Of a stretch of DNA of 64,000 nucleotides, positions 5,494-64,000 are shown one piece after another (position 1 is the first letter of the stretch; each line of letters opens with the position of its first letter). The translations under genes were made by a program, and so were the position numbers. Source of the stretch: an uncultured beta proteobacterium (GTDB lineage Bacteria > Pseudomonadota > Gammaproteobacteria > Burkholderiales > Burkholderiaceae_D); NCBI GenBank assembly GCA_942492925.1, contig OW818641.1, forward strand, positions 480,461 through 544,460, written 5' to 3'. The notes under the pieces are model-generated. The model made no database searches. It was given only the letters and a program-made list of their open reading frames with translations, and was not told the origin of the DNA.

Positions 5494-7017
5494 ATGAAAA
5501 AGTTTATTTCAAGTATGTTGAGTGTGTTGGCGCTGGTGGCCGCAATTGGGTTTGCCTTGCCTGCGCAGGCCGCTGATCCGGCGCCGTCTGCATCAGCAGT
5601 GGCTTCGGCATCGGTATCCGCTTCTGTATCGGCAGCGGCCGCAACGCCCGCGGGTGATGCAGCAGCAGCCCCGGCAGCACCGGCACCGTCGCCGAACAAG
5701 GCCGACACCGCCTGGATCATGGTGTGTGCCGTGCTGGTGATCTTGATGAGCATTCCGGGGATTGCGCTGTTTTACGGCGGCCTGGTGCGATCAAAGAACA
5801 TGCTATCGGTTTTGATGCAATCGTTCTCGATTTTCGCCTTCGTCATCGTGCTGTGGTGCATTTACGGCTATTCGCTGGCCTTCACCGAAGGCACGAGTTT
5901 CGTCGGTGGATTTGACCGCCTGTTCCTGAATGGCATCTACGATTCGGCCAAGGGCAGCTTCACGACAGCGGCCACCTTCAGCAAAGGCGTGGTGATTCCG
6001 GAATACGTTTTCGTGGTTTTCCAGGGTGCTTTCGCTGCGATTACCTGCTGCCTGATCATCGGGTCGTTTGCCGAGCGCGTGAAATTCTCGGCCGTCATGC
6101 TCTTCGTGCTGATCTGGTTCACGTTCTCTTATATCCCCATGGCGCACATGGTGTGGTTCTGGACCGGCCCGGATGCGATTACCAGCGCGGAAACGCTGGC
6201 AACGGAAACGGCCAAGGCGGGCTTCCTGTTCCAGAAGGGTGCGCTGGACTTCGCCGGTGGCACGGTGGTGCATATCAATGCCGCGATTGCTGGCTTGATC
6301 GGTTCGTACATGATCGGCAAGCGCGTCGGTCTGGGTAAAGACTCCATGGCACCGCACTCGTTGACGATGACGATGATTGGCGCGTCGCTGCTGTGGGTCG
6401 GCTGGTTCGGTTTCAATGCGGGTTCCGCGCTGGAAGCGAACGACATCTCTGCACTGGCCTTCGTCAACACCTTGCTCGCGACGGCTGCGGCAACCACTTC
6501 CTGGGTGATTGGCGAGTGGGTGATCAAACGTAAACCGTCGATGCTGGGCGGCGCGTCAGGTGCTGTGGCTGGCTTGGTGGCGGTCACTCCGGCTGCTGGT
6601 TTCATCGGCCCGATGGGTGCGCTGATTATGGGTTTGCTCGCAGGGCTGGTCTGCCTGTGGGGTGTCACTGGTCTGAAGCGCCTGCTCGGTGCAGATGACT
6701 CGCTGGATGTCTTCGGTGTGCATGGCGTGGGCGGCATTATGGGCGCACTGCTCACGGGTGTATTCGCCAGTCCGTCACTCGGCGGCCAAGGGATCTTCGA
6801 CTACGTGATCAACAAGGCTTCGACCGATCCGTATTCGATCTTCGGTCAAGTGTGGGTGCAGTTCCAGGCAGTCATCGTCTGCATTATCTGGTCAGCTGTG
6901 GTTTCTTTCATCGCCTACAAGCTGGTGGATCTCGTCATCGGGCTGCGTGTGCCGGAAGAAGCAGAGCGTGAAGGTCTGGACATCACGACCCACGGCGAAT
7001 CGGCGTACCACCTGTAG
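5494..7017 (+). CDS. amtB: Ammonium transporter AmtB with a signal peptide and an Ala/Ser/Pro-rich linker
   Basis: The ATG at 5494 is preceded by GGAGAA. Amt/MEP signatures (DFAGG.VVH, GVHG.GG..G) are present across 11-12 hydrophobic segments. Confidence 0.95.
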   Translation: MKKFISSMLSVLALVAAIGFALPAQAADPAPSASAVASASVSASVSAAAATPAGDAAAAPAAPAPSPNKADTAWIMVCAVLVILMSIPGIALFYGGLVRSKNMLSVLMQSFSIFAFVIVLWCIYGYSLAFTEGTSFVGGFDRLFLNGIYDSAKGSFTTAATFSKGVVIPEYVFVVFQGAFAAITCCLIIGSFAERVKFSAVMLFVLIWFTFSYIPMAHMVWFWTGPDAITSAETLATETAKAGFLFQKGALDFAGGTVVHINAAIAGLIGSYMIGKRVGLGKDSMAPHSLTMTMIGASLLWVGWFGFNAGSALEANDISALAFVNTLLATAAATTSWVIGEWVIKRKPSMLGGASGAVAGLVAVTPAAGFIGPMGALIMGLLAGLVCLWGVTGLKRLLGADDSLDVFGVHGVGGIMGALLTGVFASPSLGGQGIFDYVINKASTDPYSIFGQVWVQFQAVIVCIIWSAVVSFIAYKLVDLVIGLRVPEEAEREGLDITTHGESAYHL

Positions 7018-7068
7018 GAGCGAAGCAAGCGTAGTAGATAAGCGATCTTCATTTTTCCTGTCCTTTGG

Positions 7069-7096
7069 AAGCGCCTCTTCGGAGGCGCTTTTTTTT
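7069..7096 (+). terminator. Rho-independent terminator of the glnK-amtB operon
   Basis: GCGCCTC-TTCG-GAGGCGC is followed by T8. Confidence 0.85.
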
Positions 7097-7227
7097 GGCG
7101 GGATTTTTGACAACGTTTGCCGTTGATATATATAAAATAGCCCCAATATTTATCGACAAATAGAGCGGAAAATCGATAGATAACGGCTAGAATCAGGAAA
7201 AATAACAAAACATTGGAAAAGGAAGCC

Positions 7228-8526
7228 ATGGTTCCCCATCTCGTCACTGCCTTGAATGGCCCTTTGCTTGATCTGGAAAAGAAAATTCTGGACGCCACTC
7301 CCGCCATTGAACGCTGGTTCCGTCTGGAATGGCAAGATCACACGCCGCCCTTCTATTGCTCGGTTGATTTGCGTAACGCCGGTTTTAAACTGGCACCGGT
7401 CGATACCAACCTGTTCCCCGGCGGATTTAACAACCTCGCGCAAGAAATGCTGCCCCTTACGGTGCAGGCAGCGATGGCCGCGATCGACAAGTATTGCCCT
7501 GATGCGAAAAATCTGCTGCTGATTCCGGAAAACCATACGCGCAATATGTACTACCTGATGAACATTGCGCGGCTGGTCAAAATTTTCCGTCAGACGGGGT
7601 TGAATGTGCGCTTGGGATCGTTGATGCCGGAGATCAAGGCGCCGACGCCCGTGGCGCTGCCCGACGGGAATATGCTGGTGCTGGAGCCGCTGGAGCGCTC
7701 GAAAAACGGACGGCGCCTTGGCGTGAAAGATTTTGATCCGTGCACGATTTTGCTGAACAACGATTTGAGCGCAGGCGTGCCGCCGATCCTCCAGAATCTG
7801 CACGAACAAACTTTGCTGCCACCACTGCACGCCGGCTGGACGGTGCGGCGCAAGAGCAATCACTTTGCCGCGTATGACGATGTGGTGCGGCGTTTTGCGC
7901 GACTGGTCGGTGTTGACCAATGGATGCTCAATCCGTTTTTCGCCAAGTGCGGCGAAATCAATTTCGCCCAGCGTTCCGGCGAGGAATGTCTGGAAGCGTC
8001 CGTCAATTCCGTGCTGGGGAGAATTCGCCGGAAATACAAGGAATACAAGATCACCGAGAAGCCTTTCGTGATCGTCAAGGCCGACGCCGGGACTTACGGC
8101 ATGGGCATCATGACGGTGACTGATGCGAGTGAAATCAAGGATCTCAATCGCAAGCAGCGCAACAAAATGTCCGTCGTGAAAGACGGTCTGGAAGTGACTG
8201 AGGTGATTGTGCAGGAGGGCGTGCATTCGTTCGAGCGCATCAACGATGCGGTGGCCGAACCGGTGGTGTACATGATGGATCGTTATGTCGTCGGCGGTTT
8301 CTATCGTGTCCATGCTGAGCGCGACATCAACGAAAATCTGAATGCGCCGGGCGCACATTTTGTGCCGTTGGCTTTCGCGCAGCAGCACGCGATTCCGGAT
8401 TTTCGCGCCACACCTGGCACCACCGCACCCAACCGCTTTTACATGTATGGCGTGGTCGCACGACTGGCGCTGCTCGCGGCAGCGGTGGAGCTGGAAAAGA
8501 CCGATCCGAATCCGGAAGACTATTGA
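7228..8526 (+). CDS. gshA: Glutamate--cysteine ligase of the betaproteobacterial ~430-aa type
   Basis: The protein starts MVPHLVTALNGPLLDLEKKILDATPAIERWFRLEWQ...FYCSVDLRNAGFKLAPVDTNLFPGGFNN. The ATG at 7228 is preceded by AAGGAAG; the TTG at 7213 is a less likely start. The stop overlaps the gshB start (TGATG). Confidence 0.9.
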   Translation: MVPHLVTALNGPLLDLEKKILDATPAIERWFRLEWQDHTPPFYCSVDLRNAGFKLAPVDTNLFPGGFNNLAQEMLPLTVQAAMAAIDKYCPDAKNLLLIPENHTRNMYYLMNIARLVKIFRQTGLNVRLGSLMPEIKAPTPVALPDGNMLVLEPLERSKNGRRLGVKDFDPCTILLNNDLSAGVPPILQNLHEQTLLPPLHAGWTVRRKSNHFAAYDDVVRRFARLVGVDQWMLNPFFAKCGEINFAQRSGEECLEASVNSVLGRIRRKYKEYKITEKPFVIVKADAGTYGMGIMTVTDASEIKDLNRKQRNKMSVVKDGLEVTEVIVQEGVHSFERINDAVAEPVVYMMDRYVVGGFYRVHAERDINENLNAPGAHFVPLAFAQQHAIPDFRATPGTTAPNRFYMYGVVARLALLAAAVELEKTDPNPEDY

Positions 8527-55191: not shown

Positions 55192-57546
55192 GTGGCATGG
55201 ATGTTGCTGAATAAGGGGCATAAGAAGCATAAGAAGGTGAAAAGCGTGGGAGTCCCTGTCATGCCTAGAAATTGTGATTTGCAGTCCAGTCATGTTGCGC
55301 GTGAAATCGCAACGTCGAAAAAGCTAAAGTCTGTGTTGGAACAATCCCTTCGTGTGGATCCGACTGAGGAAGCGGCATCGTTTGGCCGATGGTGGCTGGA
55401 TATCGAAACCGGGGCGCTGGTCTTGTCCGCGCTGGCCGGACGATACCTTGATGTTGCCCCGGGCCTGTATCGCAATCATGAGCGTTGCTTCTCGCAAGTA
55501 TTGCCCGATGATGCATGGACACTGACGAACGCGTTCAATTTATTGAAGCAGTCCGGGGTTGCGATGGATTGCGAAATCAGGGTGATCGATGCCATCGACG
55601 GTATGCGCTGGTTGCGTATGGCATCGCTTCCCATCATCCTTGAATCGAAAGGGATGATAGCGGGGGTGGTGATCAACGTCACGGCTACGCAACAGGCCAG
55701 CGTTCGCGAACGGCTGGGGTTCGCATCCACGCAAATTCTGGTCGGAGCGACCACCGAGTCAGAAGCGATTACCGAAGTGATCCGGGTCGTGTGCGAAAAC
55801 CTTGGGTGGGAATGGGGCGCCTATTGGGAAAAGAAAAACGAGCCAGGTGCGCCCGTGTCTCTGGTGTGCAAGCACTTCTGGCACGATCCGGCGTATGGCT
55901 TGAACGCCTTCACACGAGAAAGCCGCGAACTTCAAATCCTGCCGGGAGAAGGCGTGATTGGACGTGTCTGGCGCACAGGATGCGCCGAATGGGTTGAAAG
56001 CCTGTCCAGTCCTCATGACTGTCTCCGTCACAAAGGCGTCGTCGAATGCGGCCTGAAATCCGGGTATGCCTTCCCCGTGAGTTTTGTGAACAGCGAAGGC
56101 GTGCGCCACGTTTCAGGTGTTCTGGAGTTTTGCAGCAGTTTGCCGCGTCAGCGCGAAGCGCAGTTGCCGACTTTGTCCAGAGCCATCGGGGAGTTGGTGG
56201 CGCAAGCCATGCAAAGAATCGAGCAAACCGAAACGATTCAGCGCATGGCACGCACAGATGAAATGACCGGCTTGATCAATCGACGGCACTTCTACCATCT
56301 TGTCGGGCAAGCCTGCCAGGACGCTGAATCGAGAGAGACATCATTTGGCGTTTTGTATATCGACCTAGATCGGTTCAAACCCATCAATGACGCCTATGGA
56401 CATGATGTCGGCAATTTTCTGCTGATTGAGTTTGCAAAAAGGCTGTGTGCATTGGTGCCTGCGGGCGCTTGCGTTGGGCGACTCGGCGGCGATGAATTCG
56501 CTATTTTGTCGCCATTGAATGCCTCCTTAACCATGCTTAAAGCATTGGCCGAGAAGGTGCTCAATGCTGCTGGCGCGGCGTTTCAGCATCGCGGCGTAGA
56601 ACTATCAGTGTCAGCCAGCATTGGCATCAGCGTCTATCCCGAAAACGGCACAACGACGTCGGAACTGTTGCGCAGTTCCGATACGGCGATGTATCGCAGC
56701 AAAAACATGGGCGGCAATCTCAACTGTTTTTATTCAGGCATGATGCAGTTTGATCGCACGGCCATGATTCAGCAACTGACGATTGAATCGGCATTGCATC
56801 GCGCCTTGCTGAAGAATGAATTTTTTCTGGAATACCAGCCCGTGCTGGATAGCTTCGCAGAGAAAATCGTGGCGGTTGAAGCCCTCATTCGCTGGCGCCG
56901 CTCGGGAGGAGAAATTGTTCGGCCGGACGTGTTCATTCCGATTGCGGAGCAAAGTCATCTTATTGTGCAAATCGGGCGGTGGGTGCTGAAACAGGCTTGT
57001 CATGATTTGGCGATTTTTCATCGCGCAGGGCTGGCGGAGCTTCAGGTCAACATCAATATGGCTGTTGCAGAATTTACCCACGCTGGTTTGCCGACGCGAT
57101 TAATGGAGGTGATCAATGCGGCTGGGATTGTACCCAGCAATGTTTGCCTGGAACTGACAGAAGGCATGGTGATGCAGCACGCCGATGACGTCATTCCGAT
57201 CATGGAGCATTTGCGCAAATTGGGATTCCATATCAGTCTCGACGACTTTGGCATGGGCCATTCATCATTGTCAAGATTAAAGGCGCTCCCCATTTCCTCG
57301 ATAAAAATTGATCGATCATTTGTGCGCGGCGTGCCGTCCGTCGCAGATGATTGCGCCATTGTCCAAACGCTGTTCGATCTCGGCCACCGCATGAAATTGC
57401 AAATTGTCGCCGAAGGCGTCGAGACGGAGCAGCAACTGGCGTACTTGCGGCAGTACGGCTATCCCCTGATGCAGGGGTATTTGCTCGGGAGGCCGATGTC
57501 TGCCCAAGCGCTTATCCAACAATACCAACCCCTCGCCAGCTTGTGA
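55192..57546 (+). CDS. PAS-GAF-GGDEF-EAL multidomain c-di-GMP turnover protein
   Basis: The GGDEF region has DEMTGLINRRHF...RLGGDEFAIL. The EAL region has ...VEALIRW..., ELTEG and DDFGMGHSSLSRL..LPISSIKIDRSF. A GAF-like segment (GEGVIGRVWRTG...) sits between PAS and GGDEF. The start is uncertain: GTG 55192, ATG 55201 or ATG 55261. Confidence 0.9.
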   Translation: MAWMLLNKGHKKHKKVKSVGVPVMPRNCDLQSSHVAREIATSKKLKSVLEQSLRVDPTEEAASFGRWWLDIETGALVLSALAGRYLDVAPGLYRNHERCFSQVLPDDAWTLTNAFNLLKQSGVAMDCEIRVIDAIDGMRWLRMASLPIILESKGMIAGVVINVTATQQASVRERLGFASTQILVGATTESEAITEVIRVVCENLGWEWGAYWEKKNEPGAPVSLVCKHFWHDPAYGLNAFTRESRELQILPGEGVIGRVWRTGCAEWVESLSSPHDCLRHKGVVECGLKSGYAFPVSFVNSEGVRHVSGVLEFCSSLPRQREAQLPTLSRAIGELVAQAMQRIEQTETIQRMARTDEMTGLINRRHFYHLVGQACQDAESRETSFGVLYIDLDRFKPINDAYGHDVGNFLLIEFAKRLCALVPAGACVGRLGGDEFAILSPLNASLTMLKALAEKVLNAAGAAFQHRGVELSVSASIGISVYPENGTTTSELLRSSDTAMYRSKNMGGNLNCFYSGMMQFDRTAMIQQLTIESALHRALLKNEFFLEYQPVLDSFAEKIVAVEALIRWRRSGGEIVRPDVFIPIAEQSHLIVQIGRWVLKQACHDLAIFHRAGLAELQVNINMAVAEFTHAGLPTRLMEVINAAGIVPSNVCLELTEGMVMQHADDVIPIMEHLRKLGFHISLDDFGMGHSSLSRLKALPISSIKIDRSFVRGVPSVADDCAIVQTLFDLGHRMKLQIVAEGVETEQQLAYLRQYGYPLMQGYLLGRPMSAQALIQQYQPLASL

Positions 57547-57607: not shown

Positions 57608-60166
57608 GTGAACAACATGAATGCTGCAACGACGCTCAATCTCGACAAATTTTTACCCCACATGCGCGATGTCACGCGATGCGAGCAATCGCTGCGCGAA
57701 CTGAATTTAACCTGGAGAATGATTGAATCGTCTGCCAAAATGAATTGCCCGGTTGAGGCGCGGGCCATCATCCCGACGATGTCGGCGACCCGTGAAGGAT
57801 TCGATCATCTTGAAAAGGATTTGGTGTCCAGCCTGGTGCGCGAAAAAGTGGCGAATGTGCTGGCCGAGATGGGCACCAAGGCGCAAAACGTGGTCGATAT
57901 TGTGGTGCGAAACCTCTATGAAAGAACGGCAGACGTTGGCTTTCTGGCGACGGATCGCGAGTTGTGCGCCTACGTGGCAGGCTTGAGCGACGACGGAGAA
58001 TCCGTTCGGCAGCGATTGCTGGCGTATCAAAGAAAGTACACGGTCTATGATGAAATCATGCTGCTGGATACGTCAGGCAGCGTGCTCATGCAGATTGACA
58101 GTTACATGCAAGTGGAAGGCAGCAGGGACCCGCTGATTGCGCAAACACTCGCTTCCGATAGTTATGTGGAAACTTTTCGGGCGAGCGACTTGCGTCCGAA
58201 GAAACGACAGGCGCTGATTTATTCGCGCAAGATGCATCACCCGGAAACCAATGACGTCATCGGCTTGTTATGTTTGAGTTTTAACTTTGAGCAGGAAATG
58301 GCCGATATTTATCGAACGCATCGCGATCCTGCCGAGCGATCCAACATGCTCTTGCTGGATGGAGATAATCGTGTCGTGGCCAGCGCCGATCCGCTCTGGA
58401 TACCGATTGGCGCTCACGTGCCGGTGAATCATGAAGCCAGCCCGGCTTTGCGGATGTTTGGCGGCCGCGAATACTTGGTGCGCACCTGTTATGCGGAAGG
58501 TTATCAGTCGTATATGGGGCCGCCGGGATGGCAAGGGCAAGTGATGGTGCCGGCCGAGGTGGCCTTTATCAGTGGCGGCAGCCATTCGCTCAGCCAGCTC
58601 GATCACGATATCGCAGATGGTTTGCTGTCGCACGCCAAGACGTTCTGTCCGCCGTTGTACGACATCATGCAGGCAGCCGATACAATACGTCGCGTGGTAT
58701 GGAATGGGCAGGTGATGACCGCCGGGCAATGTGGCGATTTGCTCAAACTGAAAACGATTCTGGATCAAATCAGCGAAACAGGGAATCGGAGCAATGCATT
58801 GTTTTCGCATTCCATTCAGGATTTATACGAGACCGTGCTGAGTGCCAGTTTGAATGACGTAGAATTCGCCGCGCACTTGCTGGTCGATTTGCTTGATCGG
58901 AATCTCTATGAGCGTGCGAACGATTGTCGCTGGTGGGCACTGACACCGGAATTGCGCGCAGCGCTGGCTGCGCCCGAGCAAGATACCCAAACGGTAGATC
59001 GCTTGAACCGTATCCTGGTCTACATCAACAGCTTGTACACAGTTTACGCGCGCCTGTTCGTGTATGACCGAAGCGGTCGCATTATCACCGGCACGCATCC
59101 AGATGATCGCAGCAATTCGGGAGGCGGCAGTCCGTCGATTGCCGGAGAATGCATCGATATGGAAACACTGGCACAGGTGCTGACGCTGACGACAGAGCAG
59201 GATTACCATGTGACGTCGTTCGGGCCGAGTCCGCTATATGACCATGCGCAGACCTACGTGTATCACGCTGCCATCCGGCATCCCGACCAGCCGTCGCATA
59301 TCGTCGGGGGTATCGGCATTGTTTTTGATGCTGCGCCCGAGTTCTCTGCCATGATTGCCGGTGGGCTGGGTGAGCGTACGGAAACGACAGGTTTTTTTGT
59401 GGATCGCGCAGGCCGTATCATTTCCAGCACGGACGAGAAACGTCCAGTTGGGACAATGCTGGACATCGATCCGTCGCTGCTCAAACTGGAGAGGGGAGAG
59501 AGCGCGGCGCGTATCGTGCTCCATGATGGGCACTACGCCATTATGGGGTGCAGCGCATCGAGTGGTTATCGGGAGTTCAAGGTAACAGATGGATATCAGG
59601 ATGATGTGCTGGCGGTCGTCTTCCGAACATTCGGAGAAATTCGCGTCAGTAATAGCAGTGGCTACACGCATACCCAAAATGGGACCTTGCTGATGAAAGA
59701 TCGTGCGCCGGCCCAAAACGGTGTCGAGTTTGCGACCTTTTACATCGATACGGACTTGTTCGCCATACCCGCTGAATATGTGACGGAAGCGTTTCCCGGC
59801 ACAAAGGTTACGCAGACGTCCATGAACGGCCGTCCAGAATGTATCGGCGTGTTAGCGTTGCCGCAGGAAGTCATTTGGGTATTCGATTTGGGATACCTGA
59901 TACGTGGCGCACGTTCGGCGCTCGATAGCAGAAGTCAGGTCATGGTGGTGCGGCATGGCGATCATACGATGGGCTTGCTGGTGAGCGATCTGCATGATGT
60001 GCCGGAATTCGCCCGGTCAATGATTGTAGCCACGCCGCTGGGGCAGATGAGTGAAAAAACGCTGGTGCCACAAGTGATCAAGGCCAACAACGGTGAACTG
60101 CTGATTCAGGTGATCGATATCGCTTGCTTGATCGATTTGCTGCTGACGCCGGTGGCGCAGGATTAA
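57608..60166 (+). CDS. Soluble sensor protein with two tandem Cache-like modules fused to a C-terminal CheW-like domain
   Basis: 852 aa. There is an internal duplication (NLYERTADVGFLATDRELCAY...YTVYDEIMLLDTSGSV and NLYERANDCRWWALTPELRAA...YTVYARLFVYDRSGRI). The C-terminal ~135 aa carry a CheW pattern (FATFYIDTDLFAIPAEYVTEA...GVLALPQEVIWVFDLGYLI...VMVVRHGDHTMGLLVSDLHDVPEF). No TM segment and no MCP signalling domain are present. The start is GTG 57608 or ATG 57617. Confidence 0.8.
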   Translation: MNNMNAATTLNLDKFLPHMRDVTRCEQSLRELNLTWRMIESSAKMNCPVEARAIIPTMSATREGFDHLEKDLVSSLVREKVANVLAEMGTKAQNVVDIVVRNLYERTADVGFLATDRELCAYVAGLSDDGESVRQRLLAYQRKYTVYDEIMLLDTSGSVLMQIDSYMQVEGSRDPLIAQTLASDSYVETFRASDLRPKKRQALIYSRKMHHPETNDVIGLLCLSFNFEQEMADIYRTHRDPAERSNMLLLDGDNRVVASADPLWIPIGAHVPVNHEASPALRMFGGREYLVRTCYAEGYQSYMGPPGWQGQVMVPAEVAFISGGSHSLSQLDHDIADGLLSHAKTFCPPLYDIMQAADTIRRVVWNGQVMTAGQCGDLLKLKTILDQISETGNRSNALFSHSIQDLYETVLSASLNDVEFAAHLLVDLLDRNLYERANDCRWWALTPELRAALAAPEQDTQTVDRLNRILVYINSLYTVYARLFVYDRSGRIITGTHPDDRSNSGGGSPSIAGECIDMETLAQVLTLTTEQDYHVTSFGPSPLYDHAQTYVYHAAIRHPDQPSHIVGGIGIVFDAAPEFSAMIAGGLGERTETTGFFVDRAGRIISSTDEKRPVGTMLDIDPSLLKLERGESAARIVLHDGHYAIMGCSASSGYREFKVTDGYQDDVLAVVFRTFGEIRVSNSSGYTHTQNGTLLMKDRAPAQNGVEFATFYIDTDLFAIPAEYVTEAFPGTKVTQTSMNGRPECIGVLALPQEVIWVFDLGYLIRGARSALDSRSQVMVVRHGDHTMGLLVSDLHDVPEFARSMIVATPLGQMSEKTLVPQVIKANNGELLIQVIDIACLIDLLLTPVAQD

Positions 60167-60256: not shown

Positions 60257-60421
60257 TCAGCGCAGGTTTACCAGACGACGCCACTCTTCGATGGAAATGC
60301 TATTTCGTTGTGCCGCTGGTTTTTCTGCGGCGGGGTCCAGCGTGCTGAGATAAACGGTTGCGCCAGCCATCAGGAAGGTGGTGGCCAGCAGGGCTGCGAG
60401 GGCGGCTTTTGCGTTCGTCAT
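60257..60421 (-). CDS. Small hydrophobic protein of 54 aa, hypothetical
   Basis: MTNAKAALAALLATTFLMAGATVYLS... has one TM or signal-like segment. It lies downstream of the kinase gene on the same strand. Coding status is uncertain. Confidence 0.4.
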   Translation of the reverse strand: MTNAKAALAALLATTFLMAGATVYLSTLDPAAEKPAAQRNSISIEEWRRLVNLR

Positions 60422-60553
60422 GATAAGGTCTCCCAAAAAATGTGCATGGAATGGCGCACACTTTATGTTGAGCAAAACCTGTGCCAACAAAAAATCTTGT
60501 GCAGGTGGTCGGGAGCAGCGGGAGCACAAACAGGCGACGAAAAACGACGGGAA

Positions 60554-60970
60554 TCAATCCGGCAATTTTGCGAACACCATGCGCAGACGGTTCTGATCGT
60601 TCGTGCGCGTGTAACTGACGTTGCTCGTCAACGTGCGAATCAGATACAGCCCCAGGCCGCCGACCGGACGTTCTTCGATGCCTAGGGTAGTGTCGGGATC
60701 GGGCAGGGAGAGCACATCGAAGGGTTTGCCGCGATCGGCAATTTCCAGGACGAAAGCGTCGTTGTTGATGGCGCAAATGATTTCGATGTCGCCTTCGCCG
60801 TGGGCATAAGCATGATGGCAAATATTGACGAAGGCTTCTTCAAGTGCGAGCAAAACGCCGAATTGGGCAGATGTGGGCGCATGGAAACGATCAAGACACG
60901 CCGTCACGAAGGCATTCGCATCGGGCAGCTGCTCGATGCGTGAGGTGAAGTGTTGCGTTTCGGCGCGCAT
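60554..60970 (-). CDS. Anti-sigma-factor-type serine kinase (RsbW/SpoIIAB-like GHKL ATPase)
   Basis: 138 aa with N-box LALEEAFVNICHHA, G1 IADRGKPFD and G2 GGLGLYLI. Its start is 5 nt after the STAS gene stop. Confidence 0.88.
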   Translation of the reverse strand: MRAETQHFTSRIEQLPDANAFVTACLDRFHAPTSAQFGVLLALEEAFVNICHHAYAHGEGDIEIICAINNDAFVLEIADRGKPFDVLSLPDPDTTLGIEERPVGGLGLYLIRTLTSNVSYTRTNDQNRLRMVFAKLPD

Positions 60971-60975
60971 GCGGG

Positions 60976-61311
60976 TCAGGCCAGGGCAGCGACGGCGGCC
61001 GCGACCGAGTCGTGCATCTTGAAAATGGACTGGAAGCCGGAGATGGCAAACACTTCCTTGACCGGCCCTTTCACGTTGGCAAAACAGACATCGCCTGACC
61101 TGGCTTTGACGAGTTTGGCCGTGACAAGCAAACCGCGTAACCCGGCGCTGCTGATGTAGCCGAGTCCGTCAAAATCGATCACGATGCGGGTATCGCCGCC
61201 GTTGATGAGTTGCGTGACTTTGCTTTCGTATTCCGATGCCGTGACGGCATCAAGTCGGCCCGTGAGTGTGACGATTGAAACATTACCCTCTTTTTTTGTG
61301 TGAAACTCCAT
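60976..61311 (-). CDS. STAS-domain anti-sigma-factor antagonist
   Basis: 111 aa with ...VSIVTLTGRLDA... and ...VIDFDGLGYISSAGLRGLL..., which places the conserved phosphorylatable Ser in its usual context. Confidence 0.9.
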   Translation of the reverse strand: MEFHTKKEGNVSIVTLTGRLDAVTASEYESKVTQLINGGDTRIVIDFDGLGYISSAGLRGLLVTAKLVKARSGDVCFANVKGPVKEVFAISGFQSIFKMHDSVAAAVAALA

Positions 61312-61348
61312 ACGGTTCTCCAGAAGTAGATATGTGGAATGGCTGTGC

Positions 61349-62440
61349 TCAGTTCATTTTCATCATCAGCGTCAGAACGTTTTTATCATCGATTTGCTGA
61401 AAGGCGATACTTTCCGTCATGTTCTTGATGATCATCAGCCCGAGGTCGTCCGGCATGTCCGTGTTTTCAACGGGGTTGCTGCCCGAGCCGGCGGATTCGC
61501 ACACGATTTCGATTTTTCTCGTGTTCTCGGAATAAGCGATTTTCATGTGCATGTGGGTTGTGTGCAGGTTCGGCGTGTACAGTTGCAGCACTTCTTCCAC
61601 GAGCAGTAGCAGGTGGTCGCGCACTTCTTTTGAGAGGTATTGCTTGTCGCAGAAGGCTTCGATTTCTGCATTCATCGCATACAAGTCGTAATCGGGTGAC
61701 GTGATATCGTAATTCAGGCTGCGTATCCGGTTGATGAATGCACGAGTTTTTTCGCGTTGCGGATTGTCGAAAATCTGTTCCGGCGACCCGATTTCATAAA
61801 TGATGCCTTCATCCATGTACAACACGCGATTTGAGACTTCCTTCGCCAAGGCCATTTCGTGCGTGACGATGGCCATCGTGATTCCCTCGCGGGCCAGTCG
61901 GCGGATAACCGACAGTACTTCGCTGACCATGGTTGGGTCAAGTGCCGACGTCGGTTCGTCAAACAAAATGATTTCGGGGTCCATCGCCAAGCAGCGCGCA
62001 ATGGCCACGCGCTGCTTTTGTCCGCCCGAGAGTTCATCCGGATAGTTGAACGCTTTTTCTGCCATGCCGACGAGGCGCAGCGTATCGAGTGCTTTTTTCT
62101 CCGCTTCCTCACGGGGTTTGCCGAGCAGCTTGATTTGGGCCAGCGTCAGGTTTTCCAGCGCCGTCAGATGCGCAAAGAGATTGAAAGACTGGAACACCAT
62201 GTTCGCCTTTTGGCGAACTTTTGGTAAATCAATATTTTTTTCCATGACGTTCACGCCGCCGATGTGAATGGCGCCGCCGCTGGGTTCGTCCAGCAGGTTG
62301 AGACAACGCAGGAAAGTGCTTTTCCCGGTGCCGGAAGGGCCGATGATGGAGACGACTTCGCCGCGCTGGATGTGGACGTTCACGTCCCGCAGTACCGTCA
62401 GGCTGCCGTATTTCTTCGAGAGATGTTCGACTTTGATCAT
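61349..62440 (-). CDS. Polar amino-acid ABC transporter ATP-binding protein (GlnQ/HisP type) with a ~120-aa C-terminal extension
   Basis: It has Walker A GPSGTGKST, signature LSGGQKQRVAIAR, Walker B ILFDEPTSALD and an H-loop THEM. Residues ~245-363 lie beyond the canonical ABC core and resemble a degenerate GHKL/SpoIIAB module. Its start overlaps the permease stop (ATGA). Confidence 0.9.
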   Translation of the reverse strand: MIKVEHLSKKYGSLTVLRDVNVHIQRGEVVSIIGPSGTGKSTFLRCLNLLDEPSGGAIHIGGVNVMEKNIDLPKVRQKANMVFQSFNLFAHLTALENLTLAQIKLLGKPREEAEKKALDTLRLVGMAEKAFNYPDELSGGQKQRVAIARCLAMDPEIILFDEPTSALDPTMVSEVLSVIRRLAREGITMAIVTHEMALAKEVSNRVLYMDEGIIYEIGSPEQIFDNPQREKTRAFINRIRSLNYDITSPDYDLYAMNAEIEAFCDKQYLSKEVRDHLLLLVEEVLQLYTPNLHTTHMHMKIAYSENTRKIEIVCESAGSGSNPVENTDMPDDLGLMIIKNMTESIAFQQIDDKNVLTLMMKMN

Positions 62441-64000
62441 GCTTTGCTCCGCAGCTTACGTTTGCGTTTCGGATCGGTGGCGCGTTCAAGGTATTCGAGT
62501 GACTGCGTCAGAATCCAGGCGATGAGAAAGTACAGGATCGCCACCATCACCAGCGGGAAGAAGGCATCGAAGGTGCGGCTGCGAATAATGTCGCTGGCCT
62601 TGGTCAAGTCCTGTACGGCGATGTAGCCGACGATGGAGGTCATCTTCACCAGCGAAATGAATTCGCCTTTATAGACCGGCAGAATTTGACGCACGGCCTG
62701 CGGCAGTACGATGTACACAAAGGTTTTCGTCTTGGTGAAGCCCATCGCAATGCCGGCTTCGGTTTGTCCTTTGTCCACGCCTTCAATGCCCGACCGGAAA
62801 ATTTCTGCCGCATAGGCGGCGAAGTTCATGCCGAAGGCGACCACCGCGACCAGAACCGGGTCGATGTTGATCGAGGCAAAGGCCACGTAAAAAATCAGCA
62901 TCAGCAAGACCAGCACGGGCGTGCCACGCAAGATGGAGATGTAGACCTTGGCCGGGATGTTCAGAAACGCTTTCTTCGACATGCGCATGAAACAGACCAG
63001 TGCGCCCAGTAGGGTGCCGAAGATGGAGGACAGCACGGCGATCAGGAAGGTCACAACCAGGCCATCCCAGATCAGGAGGTAGCGTTTTTCCAGAAGGATA
63101 TTGCTGTGAAAGCTGTTGCTGACACTTTGCAGGAAAGTGGGTTGCGACGGTTTTGTCTCGGCACCCGCGGCGGGGCTGACGATATTTTTCTTGAGGGCGA
63201 AGGCGTTCGTTCCCATTTCATAATACACATCGGAAAAGTCGATTTGCTTTTTGCGCTCTTCCGTGGCCATCAGCGTGCTGGTGACCATGTCGACCTTGCC
63301 GGTTGAAACGGCGGCGATCAGACTGCCGAATTCCATGTCGGCGAACTTGACGTCTTTTCCGAGAAAGGCGCCGAATCGCTGCACTAGTTCGACGTCGAAG
63401 CCGATTAACTGGTTATCCTTCATCATGGTGAAGGGCATGCCTTTGTCGCTCACAATCGCGACCGTGAGCGCCCCTTTGTTTTTGACGCCAGGCTTTGCGG
63501 ACGGCATCTCGGGCATGGTGGTGGCGCCCTTGGTGATCCAGCGCTCGACCATTTCGGCATGAACGCCGTTTTCCTTGATTTTTTTCAGGAAAGCGTTAAA
63601 TTGCTTGCGGATGCCGTCGTTTCCTTTTTTGAATCCCATCGCAATCGGCACCACGTAGAGGGAGTCGCCGACCTGTCCCAGTTCGGGTTCCGTGCGGAGG
63701 ACATCCACCAAGGTTTCGCGCGCGTACAAGCCTGCGTCGACTTTCCCCGACTTGACGGCAAGCACAATGTCCGGCGGCGATTTGTATTGCAGCACCGTCG
63801 CGTTGGGGAAAGCGCGCATGGCGTAACGGTCATGGTCGGAGCCGAGCAGCACGCCGATGCGCTTGTCCTTGATGTCGGCAGGAGACGCCAGCTTGATGCC
63901 ATCGCTTGGCCCCGAGGGCGGCACCTCGGTGGCGGATGCACCGGCTTTGTCACTGTCGCGCCTGACCAGCGCGGAGATGTCGTTCTCGACGTAGGGCAGG
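62437..64000 (-). CDS. Fused periplasmic substrate-binding domain(s) and polar amino-acid ABC permease; the 5' end lies outside the window
   Basis: The frame stays open to the window edge (LPYVENDISAL... upstream of the GTG at 63924). SBP-like segments include ...KRIGVLLGSDHD...AMGFKKGN... and ...LIGFDVELV...GKVDMV.S.L..T.ER. A His/Glu/Gln-type permease core follows (...GTPVLVLLMLIFY..., EAG.A.G). Confidence 0.85.
   Translation of the reverse strand, partial: LPYVENDISALVRRDSDKAGASATEVPPSGPSDGIKLASPADIKDKRIGVLLGSDHDRYAMRAFPNATVLQYKSPPDIVLAVKSGKVDAGLYARETLVDVLRTEPELGQVGDSLYVVPIAMGFKKGNDGIRKQFNAFLKKIKENGVHAEMVERWITKGATTMPEMPSAKPGVKNKGALTVAIVSDKGMPFTMMKDNQLIGFDVELVQRFGAFLGKDVKFADMEFGSLIAAVSTGKVDMVTSTLMATEERKKQIDFSDVYYEMGTNAFALKKNIVSPAAGAETKPSQPTFLQSVSNSFHSNILLEKRYLLIWDGLVVTFLIAVLSSIFGTLLGALVCFMRMSKKAFLNIPAKVYISILRGTPVLVLLMLIFYVAFASINIDPVLVAVVAFGMNFAAYAAEIFRSGIEGVDKGQTEAGIAMGFTKTKTFVYIVLPQAVRQILPVYKGEFISLVKMTSIVGYIAVQDLTKASDIIRSRTFDAFFPLVMVAILYFLIAWILTQSLEYLERATDPKRKRKLRSKA

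Follow-up and report, generated by a model that had tools for sequence, protein, structure and literature searches.

At one end of a 64,000-nucleotide stretch of DNA from an uncultured beta proteobacterium (contig OW818641.1, positions 480,461 to 544,460; hereafter the window, in whose own numbering all positions of this locus are given), four minus-strand genes encode an ATP-binding cassette (ABC) importer together with two proteins of the kind known from partner-switching systems. The ATPase of this importer carries a C-terminal tail that has the fold of the serine kinases RsbW and SpoIIAB, and this tail and its possible partner are the subject of this report. First in the direction of transcription is the 3' part of a gene (T) for a permease fused to several substrate-binding domains (SBDs), at 62437..64000 (SBP_bac_3 at 5e-29, BPD_transp_1 at 6e-21). 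The ATPase gene A (61349-62440, 363 amino acids) follows; its product consists of a nucleotide-binding domain (NBD) of the GlnQ/HisP type (residues 1-240, 61721..62440; ABC_tran at 4e-34) and of the tail, an RsbW/SpoIIAB-fold pseudo-kinase domain (residues 241-363 plus the stop codon, 61349..61720). Next come S (60976-61311), encoding an RsbV/SpoIIAA-like STAS-domain protein of 111 amino acids (PF01740 at 1e-20), and K (60554-60970), encoding an RsbW-type serine kinase of 138 amino acids (HATPase_c_2 at 2e-30).

The genes are packed as tightly as a first-pass annotation of this DNA had described. The stop codon of the permease and the start codon of the ATPase overlap in ATGA at 62437-62440, and gaps of 37 and 5 nucleotides follow. 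The same annotation took the four genes for one transcription unit; its layout stands, its completeness does not. The open reading frame (ORF) of the SBD-permease was called at 62437-63924 on the minus strand, but the frame contains no stop up to base 63999, so the gene, and with it the operon, extends past the window. Its visible portion is equivalent to residues 759-1274 of the 1274-residue orthologue in a closely related locus, L081 (76.5% identity), and about 2.3 kb of the permease gene lie outside.

The visible permease comprises the end of one family-3 SBD, a half-SBD and one BPD_transp_1 membrane domain. The half-SBD adjoins the membrane domain (63151-63486, minus strand; ORF residues 146-257), covers only positions ~1-95 of the 132 positions of SBP_bac_3 and passes directly into the first transmembrane helix. 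This arrangement is conserved and occurs also in the relatives P0212, P0245 and P0263. Residues 1-239 of the ATPase cover the entire 240-position GlnQ model of NCBIfam (6e-86) and match those of TcyN (6e-84) and HisP (7e-74), EhuA being close too. The translation contains a Walker A motif (GPSGTGKST), a signature motif (LSGGQKQR), a Walker B motif (ILFDEPTSALD) and an H-loop (THEM). An NBD of about 240 residues with these motifs and with GlnQ, TcyN and HisP as its best matches places the protein among the ATPases of polar amino-acid importers (PAAT family). All equivalog scores, however, stay under their curated cut-offs (for GlnQ, for example, 287.6 against 379), and we therefore assign no substrate to the importer.

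Some relatives are single-chain fusions of SBD, transmembrane domain (TMD), NBD and tail (P0245, 882 amino acids; P0242, 569 amino acids). These fusions, together with the presence of one permease gene and one ATPase gene, point to a T2A2 transporter design. They also account for the long candidates in a search for Rosetta-stone fusions of tail and STAS domain, which proved to be T-A fusions and not STAS fusions. The nearest named relatives of the ATPase come from metagenome-assembled genomes (MAGs) of Burkholderiaceae (73-75% identity). The 120 best full-length relatives all measure 361-389 amino acids and are named merely "amino acid ABC transporter ATP-binding protein" or similar; a precomputed match to the kinase family HATPase_c_2 (PF13581) exists for just 14 of them.

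No linker separates the tail from the NBD, the one beginning within a few residues of where the other ends. Its residues 253-358 match positions 8-125 of the 127 positions of PF13581 with an E-value of 1.6e-5; the score of 25.3 bits is slightly below the gathering score of 27.4, so that Pfam by its own rule would not count the tail as a member. Profile comparison with hhalign is clearer: a profile of 22 tail homologues matched the window kinase with 93.5% probability, and 81 tails matched 38 operon kinases with 97.6% probability (E 2.8e-12, 121 columns). An AlphaFold2 model of the tail (pLDDT 90.2, pTM 0.84) was compared with the PDB by Foldseek, and the top 21 matches were all partner-switching kinases, namely mycobacterial UsfX, SpoIIAB, RsbW and SiaB (E down to 3e-6, TM-scores 0.54-0.74). 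Several of these structures were solved as a complex with a STAS partner (8ih8, 1th8, 6m36, 6kko). The catalytic (CA) domains of histidine kinases rank after them, and the 50 PDB matches listed include no chain of an ABC transporter. A search of the PDB with the tail profile by sequence alone returned no kinase, only chance matches such as Spc25 (E 0.05); the kinship of the tail to SpoIIAB and RsbW is thus visible by profile-profile or structure comparison only.

The neighbouring kinase K, which matches Bacillus subtilis RsbW (PDB 6m36) at 4.7e-5, retains all motifs of its family: E44, E45 and N49 in the N-box, D79-x-G81 in G1, and R101 and G104-G105-L-G107 in G2. The tail keeps the two glutamates of the N-box (E282, E283), and the Mg-binding Asn falls opposite a one-residue gap beside Gln286. 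In G1, the kinase D79 pairs with Ser316. From the ATP lid an 11-residue deletion has removed Arg101 and Gly104 (kinase numbering), Gly105 is replaced by Asp332, and LGL alone is left. These losses hold across 81 tails, whereas all motifs are at least 90% conserved in the 38 operon kinases. A by-eye alignment of the motifs in the first-pass annotation is reproduced by hhalign, except that it had set Glu315, and not Ser316, against the Asp of G1. With the Asn of the N-box, the Asp of G1 and 11 residues of the lid gone, the tail has to be regarded as a pseudo-kinase. The earlier proposal of a pseudo-kinase module sharing its fold with the kinase next door therefore agrees with Pfam, AlphaFold2, Foldseek and hhalign alike. 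Judged by its sequence and its model, the tail is a catalytically dead domain of the SpoIIAB/RsbW fold.

Catalytic death does not mean decay. Within the tail family, alignment columns are on average 69% identical. Comparison with the ATPase orthologue of L081, 80% identical, reveals purifying selection on the tail (pN 0.18, pS 0.76, the latter saturated). Between the same two loci the tail is better conserved than the kinase K, with 70.7% against 60% identity. By these measures the tail is not a decaying domain.

The STAS protein passes the model of the anti-sigma-factor antagonist superfamily (TIGR00377, 5.5e-23, above the cut-off). Its predicted phospho-acceptor is Ser55 (YIS-S55-AGL, codon 61147-61149), which we take, from an alignment to the SpoIIAA sequence, to correspond to Ser58 of SpoIIAA. 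Both serines of YISSAGL are at least 90% conserved in 56 operon STAS proteins, the second one is invariant in a paired alignment of 28 rows, and Ser55 is retained in divergent STAS proteins as well. The phosphorylatable serine context noticed earlier in the window is thus a trait of the whole family. A STAS protein with a predicted phosphorylation site and a cognate Ser kinase with intact motifs, two of the components expected of a partner switch, lie here side by side. One short protein joins sequences of both kinds: P0021 (140 amino acids, from a 590-bp ENA contig) resembles the operon STAS proteins in its N-terminal part (MEFQSRKEAGATILTISGRLDAVT) and continues as an ATPase tail (TPDYDLYAMNAEIE...). 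This sequence probably arose as a chimera, during assembly or by recombination, at the short similarity between 'VTAPEYEK' of the STAS protein and 'SSPDYDLY' of the tail.

The tailed ATPases are widely distributed. One genome per species was scanned by pattern, with confirmation of the matches by tblastn, and at least 155 of these genomes, spread over about eight phyla, encode such an ATPase; being limited by the pattern, this number is a lower bound on family size. The best 80 of the 155 belong to Methylococcaceae, Nitrosomonas, Nitrotoga, Methylophilaceae, Burkholderiales, Chlorobiaceae, Geobacterales, Desulfuromonadales, other Desulfobacterota, Acidobacteriota, Victivallales, Rhodothermales, Chitinophagales, Melioribacter and two Bacillota (Syntrophomonas and Pelotomaculum). 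Protein searches with the tail only, which returned 27 fragments from a word-indexed database and 477 matches from an exhaustively searched representative library, give no reliable family size. The matches in the library are mostly fragments, presumably because full-length proteins were clustered with ordinary GlnQ.

In 78 loci the sequence extends far enough downstream to be assessed, and in 45 of these the gene of the tailed ATPase is followed immediately by a STAS gene in the same orientation. After this adjacent STAS gene there follows a same-strand kinase gene in 18 cases and a convergent kinase gene of another HATPase_c_2 subfamily (here called K'; Pfam 1e-22) in 16; the remaining 11 have no kinase gene nearby. 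K' (at ~6760-7260, minus strand, in L010, L012, L014, L019, L032, L047 and others) encodes about 164 amino acids, is convergent and apparently forms a single gene; its hosts are Methylococcaceae, Nitrosomonas and Nitrotoga.

The window itself contains neither a PP2C phosphatase nor a sigma factor (the sigma probes were RpoE and SigF, of limited sensitivity), as the first-pass annotation had noted. A system devoid of phosphatase does not follow from this. In L081 and L082, the two closest relatives of our locus, a SpoIIE phosphatase gene (P; SpoIIE at 2e-51) is situated directly upstream of the permease gene, and the lack of PP2C in the window is therefore probably a window-edge effect. When neighbouring ORFs were clustered, 41 loci proved to share one more conserved gene, in most cases located upstream of the permease gene; its product of about 645 amino acids has the architecture dCache_1-HAMP-SpoIIE, that of a membrane sensor PP2C phosphatase. 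Since P possesses a periplasmic sensor domain, the input of the system is most likely periplasmic or environmental. The earlier assumption that amino-acid transport or ATP status provides the input has to be revised accordingly: these may contribute, but hardly on their own. The Cache domain of P is probably not a canonical amino-acid sensor, as the Arg of the RPWY-type motif is apparently replaced (FWDWY in L014). Directly upstream of the P gene, and overlapping it, a gene for an NMT1/THI5-like periplasmic binding protein is found in L012 (16-1098), L034 (744-1766) and 19 more loci; this protein may be a co-sensor for the phosphatase.

A scan of 82 loci with hidden Markov models, within flanks of about 6 kb, detected S in 57, K in 43, P in 44 and any of the three in 64, P being under-counted because the flanks often stop short of the far side of the long permease gene. 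In L081 and L082 (ATPases 80% and 75% identical to ours) the genes form a tight P-T-A-S-K operon, encoding a phosphatase of 616-619 amino acids, a permease of about 1270 with four to five SBDs, a tailed ATPase of 363, a STAS protein of 111 and a kinase of 135-140. Elsewhere other gene orders occur: besides PTASK we observed PTASK' with convergent K', PTAS, a divergent P'K'S'-TA arrangement, and loci with P downstream. The rearranged loci include divergent STAS and kinase subfamilies. Inherited synteny alone hardly explains a linkage that is kept across such rearrangements, and the anticipated conservation of STAS and kinase genes next to such transporters evidently extends across phyla as well as gene orders. 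A sigma-factor gene, on the other hand, does not accompany the module, in keeping with what had been read from the window: with the same limited probe sensitivity, it was detected in one of the 82 loci. That locus (L078, a Chitinophagales MAG) has an ORF for a sigma factor of the extracytoplasmic function (ECF) type directly downstream of the tailed ATPase (6559-7047, plus strand) and contains no P, S or K.

Comparison of pairwise evolutionary distances over 46 operons links the STAS protein with the tail more closely than with the NBD. STAS distances correlate with those of the tail (r 0.77) better than with those of the NBD (r 0.52). Given the NBD, the partial correlation of tail and STAS is 0.67 (permutation p 0.0005; 0.56-0.67 for tail and STAS overall), while that of NBD and STAS given the tail is -0.09, and that of kinase and tail given the NBD, for a kinase set mixing two subfamilies, 0.15. 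This co-variation between sequences is weak evidence, and it favours a specific tail-STAS relation over a contact of STAS with the NBD or a heterodimer of tail and kinase.

The reading that we favour, with modest confidence, is that the window shows the visible end of a conserved five-gene module, P, T, A, S and K, in which a phospho-regulated STAS protein binds the tail and gates the importer. We infer the binding of S to the tail, the dimerisation of the tails, the stoichiometry and the control of binding by phosphorylation. In a T2A2 complex two tails would sit beneath the NBD dimer, in the place where other importers have their C-terminal regulatory domains. Unphosphorylated S would attach to the tail as RsbV and SpoIIAA do to their kinases. 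As the tail is without an ATP site, this complex would not be resolved by phosphorylation and could act as a stable regulatory clamp, altering the ease of NBD closure and with it transport. Phosphorylation on Ser55 by K would make S leave the tail; dephosphorylation by P, upon a periplasmic signal, would let it return. The output of the partner switch would then be the importer itself and not a sigma factor. Whether S inhibits or stimulates transport is a matter of analogy, and with MetNI, ModBC and MalK-EIIAGlc in mind we lean slightly towards inhibition. Low ATP is known to make RsbW-type kinases fail. Under such conditions S would stay unphosphorylated and the ATP-costly importer would be shut, which is a reason for this leaning.

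Several observations weigh against such a mechanism. In 18 of the 82 loci a tailed ATPase is present with no P, S or K within about 6 kb; the tail may there have a function independent of P, S and K, or these genes may be located elsewhere. In the SpoIIAB-SpoIIAA complex (1TH8) the ATP lid lies near the phosphorylated Ser. Since the lid is deleted in the tail, the canonical mode of STAS binding is not guaranteed. The co-variation signal, obtained by a mirror-tree type of comparison, may be inflated, because tail and STAS protein both evolve faster than the NBD. Finally, as read from the L014 sequence, the Arg of the RPWY context usual for amino-acid binding appears to be missing from the Cache domain of P, so that its signal is not evidently an amino acid.

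The lone-transporter loci also fit a different explanation, which we regard as possible though unlikely, namely that information flows outwards, as from MalK to MalT. The importer would then be a transceptor: its transport or nucleotide state would make the tail capture or release S or K, and free S or the K:S ratio would control a target elsewhere, such as a sigma factor, a diguanylate cyclase or another enzyme. This explanation draws on the same evidence of fold and synteny as the gating of the importer by S. K keeps all kinase motifs and could serve as an anti-sigma factor too; the 18 loci devoid of linked P, S and K indicate that partners can be encoded elsewhere; the ECF sigma gene of L078 directly follows a tailed ATPase; and MalK-MalT provides a precedent (PMC6906923). 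A conserved output gene, however, is missing from the 82 loci, where clustering of neighbours gave only T, S, P, the NMT1-like binding protein and K. Moreover, the periplasmic domain of P supplies an input of its own, which makes a second sensory role of the transporter unnecessary, though possible.

That the tail docks K instead of S, tethering the kinase to the transporter in a heterodimer and modulating its activity on S, appears improbable to us. RsbW and SpoIIAB proteins form dimers, tail and kinase share their fold over the full length, and in 34 of the 45 loci with adjacent STAS the kinase gene follows that of the ATPase at a distance of no more than about 1.5 kb. Yet STAS is the steadier neighbour of the two (57 loci against 43), 11 loci have adjacent S and no K, and the partial correlation of kinase and tail stays far behind the values for tail and STAS. 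Two kinase subfamilies, K and K', coexist with one tail family, and within one T2A2 complex one would expect the two tails to pair among themselves.

We consider it very doubtful that S binds the NBD itself, in the manner of MlaB, with the tail serving as a dimerisation or stability domain or mediating trans-inhibition by a small ligand as do the C2 domain of MetN and ModC. Direct binding of a STAS protein to an NBD is certainly possible, as MlaB and MlaF prove (PMC7367683), and ABC importers frequently possess a C-terminal domain that binds a ligand (PMC10710835). The tail, however, has specifically the fold of kinases that bind STAS proteins, the divergence of STAS follows the tail and not the NBD, and the loss of adenine- and Mg-binding residues makes nucleotide sensing by the tail unlikely. 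It is very improbable, in spite of the Pfam match below the gathering threshold, that there is no functional linkage at all, the tail being a decaying remnant of a fusion and P, S and K an ordinary partner switch for an unlinked sigma factor, since the tail is strongly conserved over about eight phyla under purifying selection and better than K, and the association outlasts several independent gene orders.

Downstream of the kinase gene the window contains an ORF at 60257-60529 (minus strand; 90 amino acids, or 54 from an internal Met) with one hydrophobic helix and no match in Pfam or NCBIfam. A counterpart is absent from all 82 related loci, and the ORF probably does not belong to the unit. 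A scan for promoters and terminators near the 3' end of the operon gave no signal above shuffled expectation. Convergent on the operon lies a plus-strand gene (57608-60166) for a protein of 852 amino acids with Cache-like stretches (dCache_1, sub-threshold) and a C-terminal CheW-like domain; lacking the signalling domain of methyl-accepting chemotaxis proteins, it has an unusual architecture. Just upstream of it, a PAS/GAF-GGDEF-EAL protein of cyclic di-GMP turnover is encoded (55192-57546, plus strand).

Post-synthesis control of bacterial transporters is known for a handful of systems only. Partner-switching modules, in turn, are abundant in genomes, and most of them have no known output, as they lack an adjacent sigma factor. 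The module described here offers a concrete and testable output, the transporter. We hold the chances to be evenly balanced that a widespread class of ABC importers carries its own partner-switch receptor, through which P and K would switch uptake post-translationally, within seconds and without transcription. If this is true, it would be the first partner-switching system with a transporter as output, and its GHKL pseudo-kinase, the first ABC regulatory domain of GHKL fold, would join a short list. It would also shed light on the gating of amino-acid uptake in methanotrophs, nitrifiers, green sulfur bacteria and Geobacter-type organisms. For MlaB, control by phosphorylation of a STAS protein that acts on an ABC ATPase is no more than a hypothesis; a dedicated pair of kinase and phosphatase would here supply it. 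An evolutionary route is suggested as well, in which a kinase was duplicated, the active site of the copy killed and the copy fused to the target. For annotation, all this is a reason not to label tailed ATPases plain GlnQ.

The first-pass annotation knew of no described system with such wiring, and our full-text literature searches likewise found no description of one; a review of STAS-only proteins and one of post-translational control of transporters mention nothing comparable. Individual parts have clear counterparts. GlnPQ of Lactococcus lactis is an amino-acid importer with tandem SBDs fused to the permease. Like our importer, it combines a PAAT ATPase with family-3 SBDs placed N-terminally to a single TMD, in a homodimeric T2A2 complex. 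Up to four or five SBDs per chain (1270 amino acids), the membrane-proximal half-SBD, the tail of the ATPase and the occurrence in mostly Gram-negative phyla set the present family apart.

An extra domain directly after the NBD, expected to pair under the NBD dimer, is shared with MetNI (C2), ModBC and MalK (TOBE) and OpuA (CBS). In MetN, ModC and MalK it is the C-terminal domain that, from beneath the NBD dimer, governs how the NBDs close (PMC10710835, PMC7367683), and the domain of MalK also binds regulatory proteins (PMC10710835, PMC6906923, PMC7367683). The tail differs from them in its GHKL (Bergerat) fold, which is outside the regulatory folds treated in reviews (PMC10710835, PMC6906923, PMC7367683), and in its presumed ligand, a phosphorylatable protein and not the transported substrate.

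The pair MlaB-MlaF is the only described STAS-ABC pair that we found in the searched literature. In MlaFEDB the function of the ATPase MlaF depends on the STAS protein MlaB, which binds to it, and the authors noted no other pair of STAS and ABC proteins in the PDB (PMC7367683). Phospho-regulation of MlaB at the equivalent Thr52 has only been hypothesised (PMC7367683, PMC5016091). As at our locus, a small STAS protein is encoded together with the ATPase (here 37 nucleotides downstream, and directly adjacent in more than half of the loci surveyed), and a C-terminal extension of MlaF is functionally important (PMC7367683, PMC5016091). That extension, however, is a short 'handshake' peptide in place of a 120-residue GHKL domain, and MlaB binds the NBD directly. 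The Mla system has no dedicated kinase or phosphatase and is an MCE lipid transporter, in contrast to the binding-protein-dependent amino-acid importer studied here, which has a BPD_transp_1 permease with fused SBP_bac_3 domains in place of MlaE and no MCE gene (MlaD).

With RsbU-RsbV-RsbW and SpoIIE-SpoIIAA-SpoIIAB the module shares a PP2C phosphatase of the SpoIIE family, a STAS protein with a phosphorylatable Ser and an intact HATPase_c_2 kinase, the fold of which is repeated in the tail. It deviates from them in having practically no linked sigma factor, in its ABC ATPase, to which a second, dead version of the kinase fold is fused, and in its phosphatase, a membrane protein with a periplasmic Cache or histidine-kinase-sensor domain. 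In SiaABCD of Pseudomonas aeruginosa, too, a PP2C phosphatase (SiaA) and a kinase (SiaB) act on a small phosphoprotein, SiaC, which in its unphosphorylated form binds and controls an effector, with no sigma factor involved (PMC7647112, PMC8457831), and SiaB (6kko) is among the structural matches of the tail. The effector of SiaC is a diguanylate cyclase, bound through its own stalk, while the presumed effector here is a transporter equipped with a kinase-derived receptor domain. Of the systems compared, SiaABCD nonetheless resembles the module most in its logic, an enzyme being activated there by the unphosphorylated partner (PMC8457831).

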